Assembly (NCBI RefSeq): GCF_030013595.1
Contig: NZ_CP122768.1
Origin: Escherichia coli
Lineage (GTDB): Bacteria > Pseudomonadota > Gammaproteobacteria > Enterobacterales > Enterobacteriaceae
Direction: 5' to 3' (one strand)
DNA length: 64,000 bases
The notes under the pieces are model-generated. The model saw only the letters and a list, made by a program, of their open reading frames with translations, did no database searches and was not told where the DNA came from. The number at the start of each line of letters is the position of its first letter. The first letter of the stretch is position 1. The translations under genes were made by a program, and so were the position numbers. Below, piece by piece: positions 16,990-54,181 of this stretch.

Positions 16990-17005
16990 AAGCCCTCCCC
17001 TGGAA

Positions 17006-17731
17006 TCACTTTTCCGACACAATACGACTGGAGGAATCAACAATCTGTCGGACAATATCCCGGTGCTTGTTCAGCTCCCGCAGCGCGGCGCAGACTCGCT
17101 CCCACTTCTGGACATGACTTTTCGCCCGGCGCAGTTCGCGGTTTGCCATATGCAGCGATGGTAAAATCAGGCCATTCGCTCGCGTTTCAGTGAACGATGG
17201 CAGTGACTGCACAAGGTCCGCCACAGTTTCTGTTTTAATTTCCTCCTGTGTTGCCGCTTCCTGTACTGGTAACGCAACACCGGCTGGCTGAGGAAAGGCT
17301 TTACCAGATGTTTTCGCTACCGATACAACTTTCGGCTCTGCTGGTAAATTACCGTCCGGCAGGCAGTAACGAAATTTACCGTTCTGATTTACGCGAATCA
17401 GACGACCTTTGCTGATGGCCATAGCCAGCGATGAGTTCACCCTGCGGGAAGTAATTCTGAATATCAGTGCAAGTTCATCAGCCGCTTTAGGGCCATGCTG
17501 TTCAATCGCCTCGATCAGCATTTGCGCTGTCACTTTAGAAGCCTGTGCCACAGATGCGTTTTCGTCGGTTTGAGTCAACCACCACATCGGGCCCTTGTTA
17601 TCAGCTTCCCCGCGACGCTTCAGTTTCCACAGCTCGTTAATCGCCTCATCCCGGGTCATTCCCAGACGTGCTGCCACTTCCTGGGAAGAGGCTTTTCCCA
17701 TTGCTTTCAGTGCGTCAAAAACGGTCTCCAT
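17006..17731 (-). CDS. DUF1627-like phage protein (241 aa)
   Basis: METVFDALKAMGKASSQEVAARLGMTRDEAINELWKLKRRGE... has a wHTH-like N-terminus. It recalls the DUF1627 proteins of Stx/lambdoid prophages (from memory). Confidence 0.5.
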   Translation of the reverse strand: METVFDALKAMGKASSQEVAARLGMTRDEAINELWKLKRRGEADNKGPMWWLTQTDENASVAQASKVTAQMLIEAIEQHGPKAADELALIFRITSRRVNSSLAMAISKGRLIRVNQNGKFRYCLPDGNLPAEPKVVSVAKTSGKAFPQPAGVALPVQEAATQEEIKTETVADLVQSLPSFTETRANGLILPSLHMANRELRRAKSHVQKWERVCAALRELNKHRDIVRQIVDSSSRIVSEK

Positions 17732-17765
17732 TAAAATTTCCTCCCGGTAAAAATTACTTCTCAAC

Positions 17766-18431
17766 TCAAACAAAACCAGCCGCTTTCCGGCGTTCATATT
17801 CCTGTTTCAGCAACTCAATTGGCGTTGGTCCCGACGGGTGTTTGGGTGCCGCCAGTTGTCGCCGGACTGGCGGAATGCTCAGGCCATTACCAACATGCTT
17901 TGCCCATTTCGTCAGTTGCCATTCTGCAAGCCGTTTTAACTCCCCTTCGGTCATCTGGCGCTCAATCCCCTTTGAACGCATCTCGAGGCAAATGTGATAC
18001 AGCACAGGCTGAGACCACGGGTACTTATCACTTCCGTCGTATCGCCAGGACTCATTGCGCCAGCGGCGGTACTCCTCCATCACAGCATCCACCGTCAGAC
18101 CAAATGGATTGGCTCCGCTTTCCGAAATCAGCGCCACAAACTCAGCCAGGTCCGGAGGCCATGTTTCACCCGCCCGGCAGCGGTCCATGCACTGGCGGCA
18201 GACCTGCCGGATTTGCTGCTCAGTCATCGCGCCAATCTGTGCAATCCAGAGCTTCGAAGGTGCGGCCCCGTTCTTCTGGGTCCAGCGGTTCGAATAAACC
18301 TCCCCCATGAGTTCCCACAGCTTCCAGGCCGTTTCCGTCGCTGATAAATCCGTTTTCACGTTCCCACTGCTCACGTGCTGCCCGAATTTCCTGAACTGCT
18401 CGTGATGCGGTGCCACCTGGTGCTGCTGCAT
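17766..18431 (-). CDS. Replication protein P-like (helicase loader), 221 aa
   Basis: Aligns by eye with lambda P (..GAMTEQQIRQV../..PPDLAEFVALI../..YPW..HICLEMR..). Follows the O-like gene. Confidence 0.7.
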   Translation of the reverse strand: MQQHQVAPHHEQFRKFGQHVSSGNVKTDLSATETAWKLWELMGEVYSNRWTQKNGAAPSKLWIAQIGAMTEQQIRQVCRQCMDRCRAGETWPPDLAEFVALISESGANPFGLTVDAVMEEYRRWRNESWRYDGSDKYPWSQPVLYHICLEMRSKGIERQMTEGELKRLAEWQLTKWAKHVGNGLSIPPVRRQLAAPKHPSGPTPIELLKQEYERRKAAGFV

Positions 18432-19245
18432 GGTTTACCCCCTTGCTGACTGGTTTAACCTGCGCCCTGACGTGATTTACGTGACGGGCGAATTTCTGCT
18501 CCCACTGAATCTGCGTGAACACTTTCCCCTCCGCTGCCCAGTAGTCCCGGAAGGCTGCAAATTCAGCTGGTGTAAATTCCGGCTCAGGCAGAGCCACTCC
18601 CCACAGAGCAGCCCGTCGTCGAAAATCCGGCGACGGATGCCAGCCATCGGTCATCGGAAATTTCCCGATGGGTTCGCTCATGCCGTCCAGATATTCGGGC
18701 TCCGGTGTCTGCGATGGCGTACCGTTCGACTCACTGGTCGTAGCTCTCTCGCGCACGCGCGCGTTATGTGTGGGGTTTAATTCTTTATCTGTATCTTTAT
18801 CTGTCGTGACTCGTCGTGACATGTCGTGACATATGCGTGACTCGTCGTGACACCCCTCATTCTGTTTTCGTAATTTTTCCCTCTCGCGCTGCGCTCTCTT
18901 GCGCTCTGCCGGGGATTTCGCGGTTTGTGAAACGTTGCCATTGTCCTCTTTCAGTACCTGGCGTTTTTCCCATCCAGTGATTAAATCACCATCAAGTACC
19001 CGCCCCTGCATCGTCTGCAAAATTGAATCAATTACCTCTTCTGTCACGTCGAGCGCACTTGCCAAATCTTCTGTCGTGACATCAATGTGACCTCGCGTGA
19101 CATTTCGTGACGCGCTCACCAGGAGGTGGATATACACTGCCATCACTGTTGCAATTGGCTGCCCTGACACCCTGGCAATTGTTCGCCACTTAGGGTCATT
19201 TGGCATGTCATGCCATAATCTGAGCCAAGCGTTAGCCATACTCAC
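18220..19245 (-). CDS. Replication initiator (O-like function) containing the origin iterons (341 aa)
   Basis: N-terminal wHTH-like region (MANAWLRLWHDMPNDPKWRTIARVSG...). Two clusters of CGTGAC iterons lie inside the gene. Sits between the ydaT-like and P-like genes. Its 3' 212 nt overlap the P-like ORF. Confidence 0.65.
   Translation of the reverse strand: MSMANAWLRLWHDMPNDPKWRTIARVSGQPIATVMAVYIHLLVSASRNVTRGHIDVTTEDLASALDVTEEVIDSILQTMQGRVLDGDLITGWEKRQVLKEDNGNVSQTAKSPAERKRAQREREKLRKQNEGCHDESRICHDMSRRVTTDKDTDKELNPTHNARVRERATTSESNGTPSQTPEPEYLDGMSEPIGKFPMTDGWHPSPDFRRRAALWGVALPEPEFTPAEFAAFRDYWAAEGKVFTQIQWEQKFARHVNHVRAQVKPVSKGVNHAAAPGGTASRAVQEIRAAREQWERENGFISDGNGLEAVGTHGGGLFEPLDPEERGRTFEALDCTDWRDD
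18801..18851. repeat. Origin iteron cluster 1: five tandem ~10-bp repeats NN(G)TCGTGAC, preceded by an AT-rich tandem TCTTTATCTGT x2
   Basis: ctgtcgtgac tcgtcgtgac atgtcgtgac atatgcgtgac tcgtcgtgac, read directly. Confidence 0.65.
19071..19111. repeat. Origin iteron cluster 2: four ~10-bp repeats ending in GTGAC
   Basis: ctgtcgtgac atcaatgtgac ctcgcgtgac atttcgtgac, plus an inverted copy (gtcacg) near 19044. Confidence 0.55.
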
Positions 19246-19310
19246 CTCTTCTGATACCGAATCTTTTTACTCACGAGTTGCCGGAAGTGATTCGATATGG
19301 CTATTGTCAG

Positions 19311-19736
19311 TCAATGTACTGCCACAGCATTTCCTGCCGGGCCACCACGGTTCATCTGATTGAAACCGGCGATTGCCACTGCGACAAAATCATCAGCGTC
19401 TCTCACCAGTCGCTCCCGCGTCTCCACCAGCTCCCGAAAATAAGCTGAACTGTGGCTGCGCATTCTGGCCACCAGCAAAGGTGGCATTGCCTTTTCGATC
19501 GCTGGTAACAACGTCTGAATTTTTTCAACTGCATCAGGGGTGTCTTTCTCTACCCAGCGGAAAATTTTCTGGGTATTGCGAGCCAGGGCTTCCGGATGGC
19601 TATCGTCATACAGTTCAGGAAACGTCATACCCAACTCAAAATAAGCCTGGGTTATTCCAGCTGCTGGAACTTTTTCGCCATCAGGACGCGCCCAGGCATT
19701 CATCGCCATGCGGATGTGTTCATGCTTGATTTTCAT
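19311..19736 (-). CDS. ydaT: YdaT-family (CII-like) protein (141 aa)
   Basis: MKIKHEHIRMAMNAWARPDGEK... is as I remember Rac YdaT. Positioned directly after the cro-like gene. Confidence 0.7.
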   Translation of the reverse strand: MKIKHEHIRMAMNAWARPDGEKVPAAGITQAYFELGMTFPELYDDSHPEALARNTQKIFRWVEKDTPDAVEKIQTLLPAIEKAMPPLLVARMRSHSSAYFRELVETRERLVRDADDFVAVAIAGFNQMNRGGPAGNAVAVH

Positions 19737-19758
19737 GAATCATTTGCCTCTTGATGTT

Positions 19759-20055
19759 TCAGGTATGATCAAATGAGGATTTGTTACTGTCATTTAGTTG
19801 CTTCACTGACATATTCTGCGAACAACATGCCGAACGTCGTAAATATGACCAGTCAATATCAGGACGAAGTTCTTCGCACAGAACCTCACCTCTTGTTGCA
19901 CGTTCAATTGCTGGACATCTCTCGGCAGGCAATTGACGTACCCCTTTGATCCATTGATTTACGCTTGGAGGTGATACACCTAAAAGCCTAGCCATTGCTG
20001 ATTGCCCACCGACAACAGCACAAGCTTGCTTGAATGAATAGTTCTCTTTTTTCAT
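19759..20055 (-). CDS. ydaS: Cro-like HTH regulator, YdaS family (98 aa)
   Basis: MKKENYSFKQACAVVGGQSAMARLLGVSPPSVNQWIKG contains an HTH. Divergent from the repressor gene across an operator-rich 123-bp region. Confidence 0.75.
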   Translation of the reverse strand: MKKENYSFKQACAVVGGQSAMARLLGVSPPSVNQWIKGVRQLPAERCPAIERATRGEVLCEELRPDIDWSYLRRSACCSQNMSVKQLNDSNKSSFDHT

Positions 20056-20081
20056 CGAATGAACTCCAAAAACACACAGAA

Positions 20082-20150
20082 ATATTAGGCGACGCCTAAC
20101 ACAAATGTCAATAGGCTGTGCCTAATGCGATAAAGGTAGGAATTGCCTAA
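20082..20150. promoter_or_regulatory. OR-like region: three operators TTAGGC-N3-GCCTAA (20085-20099, 20111-20125, 20136-20150) overlapping a minus-strand pR (TTGACA 20106-20111, TAATAT 20082-20087)
   Basis: Palindromic half-sites read directly. The promoter hexamers are near-consensus with an 18-nt spacer. Confidence 0.65.
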
Positions 20151-20178
20151 TACAATGAGCATAGGAGAATATTAAGCA

Positions 20179-20655
20179 ATGCTTAGTGGTAAAGACTTAG
20201 GCCGAGCGATAGAGCAGGCCATTAACAAAAAAATCGCATCGGGATCCGTCAAATCAAAGGCGGAGGTCGCACGCCACTTCAAAGTCCAACCACCATCAAT
20301 TTATGACTGGATTAAGAAAGGCTCTATAAGTAAAGATAAACTTCCAGAATTATGGCGTTTCTTTTCTGATGTTGTTGGTCCAGAGCATTGGGGGCTTAAC
20401 GAATACCCCATACCAACCCCCACCAATTCAGATACAAAAAGTGAACTTTTAGATATAAACAACCTTTATCAAGCAGCCTCTGATGAAATAAGAGCGATTG
20501 TAGCTTTCCTGTTATCTGGAAATGCTACAGAACCAGATTGGGTTGACCACGATGTTCGCGCCTACATAGCAGCGATGGAAATGAAAGTGGGTAAGTATCT
20601 GAAAGCTCTAGAATCTGAACGGAAAAGCCAGAACATCACAAAAACTGGAACTTAA
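20179..20655 (+). CDS. Prophage repressor, RacR-like HTH protein without a recognisable S24 peptidase domain (158 aa)
   Basis: HTH segment KSKAEVARHFKVQPPSIYDWIKKG. Divergent from the cro-like gene. RBS AGGAGA. AT-rich. Confidence 0.7.
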   Translation: MLSGKDLGRAIEQAINKKIASGSVKSKAEVARHFKVQPPSIYDWIKKGSISKDKLPELWRFFSDVVGPEHWGLNEYPIPTPTNSDTKSELLDINNLYQAASDEIRAIVAFLLSGNATEPDWVDHDVRAYIAAMEMKVGKYLKALESERKSQNITKTGT

Positions 20656-20750
20656 ACTTATATGGTCTGACGGAAAACTCCTGGATTCCGTTATTTAACC
20701 CCCCATCACTTTCTGCTGTCGCCATCACCTATTAGGTTACGATCAAAACA

Positions 20751-53945: not shown

Positions 53946-54181
53946 GAACTCTCCTGGATTCCCGGTGTGCAAACCGGGGGCGTATTATGTGCGAGTTCGG
54001 ACCAAAAGGGAATTGACCTGTGGCAATAAATAGCAAACGTTTTCTTATTGCGCTTTTTTTATGCTTTTTTTGGCTTTTCTTCCTCAGATAAATCATTTCG
54101 ACTCGCGGACGCCCTCTGTCAGACTGACCGAATTGTTATCAATGTTAACAAAACAAGAACAATTGGTTATAAGGAGAGAGT

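Follow-up and report, generated by a model that had tools for sequence, protein, structure and literature searches.

Phased GTCACG repeats inside the initiator gene of a Rac-like Escherichia coli prophage as probable iterons of an intragenic replication origin

The stretch of DNA analysed here, 64,000 nucleotides (nt) of an Escherichia coli genome (NCBI RefSeq assembly GCF_030013595.1, contig NZ_CP122768.1; hereafter "the window"), carries a prophage replication initiator gene in which a short word, GTCACG, recurs about once per helical turn in two separate arrays. The question raised by this locus is what the repeats are: a by-product of the encoded peptide, binding sites of some regulator or other factor, or, as an earlier note on this DNA had suggested, the iterons of a candidate origin located within the initiator gene. 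The analysis favours the last of these readings, to which we would assign a probability of about 0.8: the GTCACG arrays would be iterons bound by the winged-helix N-terminal domain of the initiator, and together with the adjoining AT-rich tract they would form the replication origin of the prophage. The features concerned are:

18220–19239, minus strand: replication initiator gene, 339 amino acids (aa) from the ATG at 19239, in an open reading frame (ORF) that runs on to a GTG at 19245 (ORF list, Prokaryotic Genome Annotation Pipeline (PGAP), PHROG and Pfam)
19075–19111, minus strand: upstream putative iteron cluster (cluster 2 of the earlier note), with GTCACG at 19111, 19101 and 19080 and GTCACA at 19091
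19043–19048, plus strand: one copy of the core in inverted orientation, GTCACG, which codes for D-V-T at the helix-turn-helix turn
18805–18851, minus strand: downstream putative iteron cluster (cluster 1 of the earlier note), five copies of GTCACG at 18851, 18841, 18830, 18820 and 18810
18776–18804, minus strand: purine-rich AT tract, ACAGATAAAGATACAGATAAAGAATTAAA in the sense orientation, candidate DNA unwinding element (DUE) and mosaic recombination joint

The gene lies on the minus strand, so that GTCACG in the gene reads CGTGAC on the plus strand. In gene order the downstream copies are spaced by 10, 11, 10 and 10 bp (10, 10, 11 and 10 bp along the plus strand) and the upstream ones by 10, 10 and 11 bp; the means, 10.25 and 10.33 bp, correspond to about one helical turn, as had been proposed, and the two arrays begin 260 bp apart. 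The five decamers ending in CGTGAC that had been claimed for the downstream cluster were found at 18805–18851 (Tandem Repeats Finder, TRF, reports a 10-bp array at 18803–18851), the AT-rich tandem said to lie next to them was recovered by TRF as a 12-bp unit, TCTTTATCTGTA, repeated 1.9 times at 18782–18804, and the inverted copy expected near 19044 is present as GTCACG on the plus strand at 19043–19048. The upstream cluster had been credited with four more copies; on the plus strand three of them are exact matches to KCGTGAC (19074–19080, 19095–19101 and 19105–19111), while the fourth is a variant, TGTGAC (19085–19090, GTCACA in the gene). The consensus unit, (T/a)GTCACG(C/A)nnn, comprises the hexamer and one semi-conserved base, with no conservation in the spacers. 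A single 310-bp stretch holds 8 of the 22 KCGTGAC sites in the window, and the chain of five phased copies is the only one longer than three for any hexamer in these 64 kb. When 64 kb of sequence were simulated 200 times with a first-order Markov model, no chain of three or more arose in 185 simulations, chains of exactly three appeared in the remaining 15, and none was longer. The only other phased chain of three in the window, GCTTTT at 54052–54078 with 9–12-bp spacing, may be due to chance, because chains of three arose in 15 of the 200 simulations.

The upstream cluster encodes aa 43–55, i.e. the end of a helix, a loop and a strand of the winged-helix domain, and the downstream cluster falls in a non-conserved linker. 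According to the earlier note, the repeats impose a repetitive peptide on the protein. This proved incorrect: because the length of the unit is not a multiple of 3, the hexamers fall in different frames, and the 10–11-bp unit is read in all three of them (tgt cac gac / gag tca cgc / gtc acg aca, giving CHD, SR and VT), with no true peptide repeat. Relatives keep the hexamers of the linker, in 3–5 copies, but not its peptide. For the upstream cluster, codon usage was compared among 22 relatives from Escherichia, Aeromonas, Pseudomonas, Bordetella, Serratia and other hosts, whose first 110 codons align without gaps at a median nucleotide identity of 69%. At 10 conserved motif codons (within aa 43–55 and 64–65), whose third base belongs to a hexamer, the most frequent codon is used in a mean fraction of 0.95 of the sequences, compared with 0.53 at the 51 remaining conserved codons (Mann-Whitney p=1e-6, a descriptive value since the sequences are phylogenetically related, although both codon classes share the same phylogeny). 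In the inverted copy, Val is encoded by GTG in 19 of 19 sequences, and the Asp codon is less constrained. Thus, selection acts on the DNA rather than on the peptide. Among close relatives the number of repeats changes in frame-preserving steps of 21 bp; at least 16 loci carry a 21-bp insertion of two units inside the upstream cluster, which adds seven residues (TCHGVSL) to the protein and brings the array to six direct copies, one of them degenerate (GTCACT).

Relatives of the N-terminal domain were collected from phage records, IMG/VR and one genome per species, and their genes were scanned without an assumed motif for phased arrays, defined as at least three copies at 9–12-bp spacing, in two regions, about nt 100–250 and 300–600 from the start. 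Of the 62 loci analysed, 45 have arrays in both regions, each detected independently, 9 in the downstream region only and 8 in neither; a relative from a Microcystis phage (L006) and about eight other distant loci showed no clear array. The shared layout places the arrays at about nt 130–165 and 340–450 from the ATG, with 10–11-bp phasing. The core word differs between clades (GTCACG, GTAACG, GTGACG, GCAACG, CGAACG(C) or GGAACG) and tracks a tree built on residues other than those encoded by the repeats. Under a strict test the two arrays of a locus carry the same word in 37 of the 45 cases, compared with a mean of 14.3 and a maximum of 23 in 2000 trials of random pairing, and most mismatches are register shifts of one 7–8-mer. 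The position of the inverted copy (nt 192 of the gene) is kept in many relatives of the GTCACG class, and in the GCAACG class it is occupied by CGTTGC. The gene of Ralstonia phage Hennie, with GCAACG at nt 130, 140, 151 and 161, inverted copies at 165 and 195, and further copies at 401–431, repeats the layout of the window gene nearly base for base. Loci that share GTCACG differ in their neighbouring genes and in the C-terminal domains of their initiators, so the N-terminal domain is the only constant partner of the sites. The family has hosts as different as Escherichia, Pseudomonas, Bordetella and Sphingomonas.

Several members of the family deserve mention in their own right. In Pseudomonas phage phi1 (KT887557; L003:2501-3400), a gene for a 299-aa initiator with both GTCACG arrays corresponds to no annotated coding sequence in the record, and the neighbouring "replication protein P" has 609 aa. 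The initiator of Pantoea sp. BAV 3049 (L136:2001-3305) is a 434-aa variant: behind the winged-helix domain it contains about 150 additional aa, for which Pfam gives no match, and phased direct and inverted ACTACG words lie around this insertion.

The AT tract begins directly after the last downstream repeat. Among the 30-mers of the gene it has the lowest stability (dG -31.2 versus a mean of -42.6 kcal/mol with a standard deviation (sd) of 3.0, i.e. 3.8 sd away), and it belongs to the top 0.1% of the replication-immunity region (17000–20700) and the top 0.2% of the window in this respect. Whatever their core word, all clades have a corresponding purine-rich tract, of the form (GATAAA)n or (AGAGAAG)n, after the downstream cluster, and the 12-bp unit is present in 2 to 4 copies in relatives. 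The initiator gene is a mosaic: 18782–19245 matches phages Evi, Tritos and others at about 94%, and 18220–18802 matches Rac-SA53 and PPompW-type phages. Both halves end within 18782–18802, inside the AT tract adjoining the downstream cluster, and therefore the tract serves also as a patch of homology for swapping N-domain-plus-iteron modules against C-terminal ones. We also considered the purine tract as a specific single-stranded DNA (ssDNA) target of the DnaT-like C-terminal domain and found this idea unsupported, as the tract occurs also in relatives without a DnaT match and in genes of the DUF1376 type. Just past the AT tract lies one further element:

18750–18763, no strand assigned: GC-rich alternating quasi-palindrome, CGCGCACGCGCGCG

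In many relatives (e.g. L003, L142, L129, L104, L089 and L119) the AT tract is followed by short hairpin-capable inverted repeats with TGAC or TAAC loops, or by paired CCCCC runs.

The protein consists of a winged-helix N-terminal domain, a linker and a DnaT-like C-terminal domain, and it is accompanied by a gene for a putative helicase loader:

18940–19239, minus strand: region coding for the winged-helix N-terminal domain (about aa 1–100)
18460–18660, minus strand: region coding for the DnaT-like C-terminal domain (Pfam PF17948, partial match to NCBIfam DnaT)
17766–18431, minus strand: lambda-P-like helicase loader gene (Pfam PF06992; PHROG 109, "P-like helicase loader"; PGAP)

That the repeats lie inside an initiator gene, as previously stated, is borne out by the DnaT-like domain, by matches to the PHROG "replication initiation protein" families 1408 and 3729, and by PGAP, which names the product "DnaT-like ssDNA-binding domain-containing protein" in a strain identical over the gene. 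The same annotation makes ATG 19239 the most likely start, in place of the GTG at 19245 that had been assumed. PF17948 (62.9 bits versus a cutoff of 25, aa 196–262 of the 341-aa ORF) is the only Pfam domain detected; the score for the NCBIfam DnaT equivalog is below the cutoff (95 vs 201 bits), so the protein is not DnaT itself. The predicted structure of the N-terminal domain is a winged helix, nearest in shape to the N-terminal domain of DnaD according to fold comparison, and a search of PDB sequences with the profile of this domain gave no match at E<=1. The domain aligns with PF09681 over its full length, albeit below the threshold (15.2 vs 23.3 bits), its similarity to the PHROG replisome-organizer families is likewise sub-threshold, and NCBI names its relatives "phage replisome organizer". 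PF04492 (Phage_rep_O) was found neither in the whole protein (hmmscan, E<=0.01) nor in the N-terminal domain and 41 relatives (E<=1), and neither PF09524 nor PF07120 (DUF1376), which is present in K-12 YdaU, is among the Pfam matches of the initiator. As to the pairing of "O" and "P" genes invoked earlier, the P-like partner is confirmed, while homology to lambda O is not (no PF04492 match), and O applies by analogy only.

The long ORF of the loader shares 212 nt with the 3' end of the initiator gene, in another frame; PGAP calls only 17766–18227, a 153-aa P protein that starts past the overlap, and PHROG 109 matches residues 18–220 of the long ORF. An overlap of about 200 nt between loader and initiator genes occurs also in a distant Gilvimarinus locus (L100:2776-3522 vs 2001-2966), and one PHROG family, 15931 (482 positions), spans the initiator and loader proteins. 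Upstream of the initiator lie YdaT/CII-like, YdaS/Cro-like and RacR-like genes; with these neighbours, the initiator and the P-like loader, the locus is the early-right replication module of a Rac-like lambdoid E. coli prophage.

Those elements of the earlier proposal of iterons and a candidate origin that could be tested on the sequence (DNA-level selection, co-variation of the core word, an adjoining AT tract of low stability) all held. From the features observed directly, i.e. the anatomy of the arrays, the selection on their DNA, the co-variation of core word and domain, the winged-helix fold, the low-stability tract and the mosaic joint, and by analogy with the lambda origin (PMC7466680) and with oriL and G38P of SPP1 (PMC5737612), we infer initiator binding, unwinding, helicase recruitment and origin activity. 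Derepression of the prophage would lead to rightward transcription and to synthesis of the initiator, whose winged-helix domains would fill the hexamers head-to-tail, one per helical turn and on one face of the DNA. The protein-DNA filament on the five downstream sites would distort the DNA and open the neighbouring tract at 18776–18804, whereupon the DnaT-like C-terminal domain and the neighbouring P-like protein would bring in the host DnaB. The upstream array, with four direct sites and one inverted site, would act as an auxiliary initiator-binding array, either by looping with the downstream array or by adjusting the dosage of the initiator through autoregulation. The two clusters may differ in role, that of the upstream one being less certain.

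The lambda origin, of which Shiga toxin (Stx) phages have variants, sits in the middle of gene O and comprises four (or six) iterons, which are much longer than a hexamer (PMC7466680). The window gene resembles it in that the predicted origin lies between the regions coding for the DNA-binding and partner-binding domains, with repeats predicted to be bound by the N-terminal domain and followed by an AT-rich tract, in that a gene for a P-type loader is located immediately downstream, and in that the N-terminal domain and the iterons travel as a specificity module. It differs in the N-terminal domain without PF04492, in the 6-bp cores at 10–11-bp spacing, a format unlike that of the four lambda iterons, as the earlier note had remarked (PMC7466680), in the DnaT-like C-terminal domain, and in the presence of a second array and an inverted copy inside the DNA coding for the binding domain. 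With neither PF04492 nor long iterons, the window initiator falls outside the lambda O family. In the Bacillus phage SPP1, oriL is situated inside gene 38 and consists of iterons (AB boxes) bound by G38P and an adjacent AT-rich DUE; G38P also binds oriR (PMC5737612). An origin embedded in the gene of the initiator, iterons with an adjoining AT-rich element and a second discrete region would all have parallels in the window; in contrast to SPP1, PF09681 remains below the cutoff, the C-terminal domain is DnaT-like rather than PF09524, the host is another one, a P-like loader and the host DnaB would be employed, and both arrays lie in one gene.

The Rac prophage has an experimentally active origin, oriJ (PMC3945230), and oriJ plasmids are referred to in PMC11014345; a mapping of oriJ at the sequence level was not found in the literature searched. 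Rac shares with the window the gene order racR-ydaS-ydaT-initiator-loader, and its YdaU has in common with the window initiator the C-terminal half and the purine tract. The N-terminal domain of YdaU, however, is DUF1376, its partner is the ATP-binding YdaV, and its gene has repeats of another sequence at 33-bp spacing: K-12 ydaU (L146:1820-2677) contains TGTTCA at nt 149 and again at 360, 393 and 426, followed by the purine tract AATAAAGATACAGATAAAGAT. This arrangement of repeats and tract may, judging from the sequence, be the anatomy of oriJ. In K-12 ydaU the tract is followed by CCCCCCCtaaatCCCCCCCGGGGG. Genes of the DUF1376/YdaU type (K-12 ydaU; L149:2660-3487; L155:935-1639) have their own repeats in a two-cluster layout and then a tract of the (ACAGAT/GATAAA)n type; that of L155 contains three copies of GGACGTTCAAC. 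A parallel in domain composition is provided by DopC and DopE, domesticated O-like and P-like proteins of Cellvibrionales, where an O-like helix-turn-helix is combined with a DnaT-like C-terminal domain and a P-like partner, and where no iteron-like sequences in dopC and no origin function have been reported (PMC5509034). The window gene shares with them the N-terminal helix-turn-helix, the DnaT-like C-terminal domain and the P-like partner gene; unlike dopC, it has clear iteron-like repeats and lies in a prophage. Two loci from Gilvimarinus (Cellvibrionales; L099 and L100) encode members of the initiator family with GTCACG arrays and a P-like partner; L100 is probably not the dopCE locus, because its context, with a YdaT-like gene upstream, looks prophage-like.

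The survey also returned eight short proteins (178–193 aa; P0037, P0058, P0059, P0072, P0090, P0096, P0102 and P0120), in which the winged-helix domain of the initiator family is fused to an HNH nuclease. Four genomic contexts were examined:

L148:5001-5546: HNH chimera gene
L149:2100-2660: HNH chimera gene
L155:399-935: HNH chimera gene
L151:3786-4322: HNH chimera gene

In at least three independent contexts (L148, L149/L150 and L155) the chimera is encoded directly upstream of an initiator gene of the DUF1376/YdaU type, which has its own, different repeats in the same two-cluster layout; in the fourth, L151, an unclassified gene follows and the chimera has no array. The chimeras of L148, L149/L150 and L155 keep the upstream cluster of their own class, without the downstream cluster and the AT tract. 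One chimera lineage shows 72% nucleotide identity to the nearest sampled initiator gene, with third-position identity of 0.42 outside the motifs, i.e. synonymous divergence near saturation. This retention of the hexamers rules out that the chimeras avoid self-targeting by recoding them. By their resemblance to the origin-directed nuclease Odn, which phage ICP1 uses against PLE (PMC8263062), the chimeras may be origin-directed nucleases deployed against rival phages, or they could represent a trace of the insertion of an HNH cassette.

How do other explanations of the arrays compare? It is unlikely, in our opinion, that they are operator-like sites serving autoregulation or a transcriptional roadblock for dosage control, with the true origin elsewhere. 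The position of the upstream cluster early in the coding region would suit such a function, and so would its retention in winged-helix-HNH chimeras that have neither the downstream cluster nor the AT tract; but the downstream cluster always adjoins the conserved low-stability purine tract, which is the classic layout of iterons plus DUE, no promoter-like site was found in or near the arrays, and the 64-kb window has no other phased array that could act as an origin. Autoregulation and origin function are, besides, compatible with each other. Less probable still is that the sites are bound by another factor, such as a host protein or the CII/Cro-like phage regulators, or are a mere conserved linker for recombination at a module boundary. 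The mosaic joint does coincide with the border of the AT tract and the downstream cluster, and the purine tract is shared with initiators of unrelated N-terminal domain such as K-12 YdaU. Yet the core word co-varies with the clade of the N-terminal domain, while upstream regulators, C-terminal domains and loaders differ at the same word; the breadth of hosts argues against any single host factor, and a linker would need neither 10-bp phasing nor a second array within domain-coding DNA. As for a repeat produced by selection on the peptide, or by chance or slippage, we regard it as practically out of the question. The low-complexity peptides encoded (CHD/SR/VT, TDKD) and the slippage-like variation in copy number are what it would predict, but the synonymous positions are frozen only inside the hexamers, the linker retains its hexamers and not its peptide, and the simulations produced no phased chain of such length. 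Taken with the reading of the unit in three frames, the frozen synonymous sites and the simulations effectively refute a peptide-driven or chance origin of the repeat.

Returning to the arrays as iterons of an origin, several observations weigh against this interpretation, in addition to the descriptive nature of the p-value in the codon comparison. With about 29 bp the AT tract is short, DnaA boxes were not found near the gene, and a promoter and terminator scan of the arrays was empty save for a weak GC stem at 18750–18763. The upstream cluster persists in chimeras without the downstream cluster or the AT tract, which suggests a function independent of the other origin elements in cis. The spacing of the two clusters, derived from site positions, varies within the GTCACG class (about 219–247 bp), which makes a rigid looping geometry unlikely and rules out a conserved helical phasing between them. 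Since the distance is not phase-conserved and the array survives in chimeras without the rest of the origin, the upstream array may promote initiation through looping or control the dosage of the initiator. No paper on the binding or origin firing of this family was found in the searchable literature, subscription papers lying outside it. The plasmid collection yielded 11 matches, mainly large E. coli records (two of them chromosome-sized), two Pseudomonas records of about 51 kb and one from Azospirillum, none of which supports autonomous plasmid replication (the two Pseudomonas records were not inspected).

An origin inside an initiator gene is an arrangement already known; this case stands out by an initiator family that has been little studied and by an unusual, short format of the repeats, one per helical turn. 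Neither iterons of the GTCACG type at one-turn spacing nor an array inside domain-coding DNA was found to be described in the searchable literature, including that on oriJ, on the iterons of replisome organizers and on phage D3 (subscription papers lie outside it), and the stretches examined of the annotated records inspected contain no replication-origin feature. A more far-reaching proposition, which we put forward tentatively and consider rather doubtful as a whole, is that these loci represent an undescribed and widespread class of origins of proteobacterial temperate phages, written in a GNNACG-type hexamer code at one-turn spacing, with one array in the codons of the very domain that reads it and with HNH fusions acting as origin-directed nucleases (compare ICP1 Odn versus PLE), so that an arms race would diversify the code. 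With the array inside the codons of the reading domain, specificity and target would be inseparable by recombination.

If the iteron interpretation is right, it would provide the cis element missing so far from a large and barely annotated class of phage and prophage replication modules, which are now labelled "DnaT-like", "primosomal protein I", "replisome organizer" or "hypothetical", or carry no annotation, as in phi1. The phased hexamer in the initiator gene would then predict replicon specificity, cross-talk and incompatibility among co-resident prophages, including those of enterotoxigenic (ETEC) and Shiga toxin-producing (STEC) E. coli strains. Because the frozen codons are synonymous ones, the upstream array could be destroyed by recoding with the protein unchanged. 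The chimeras suggest that origin-directed nucleases may be commoner than the single case of ICP1 and PLE.

Porcine ETEC strains have an initiator gene 100% identical to the one in the window. ARAGORN detected no tRNA gene in the window, whereas in the prophage of ETEC1732, where the initiator gene is 100% identical, four such genes are located upstream of Q; the window prophage is therefore unlike that of ETEC1732 outside the replication module.

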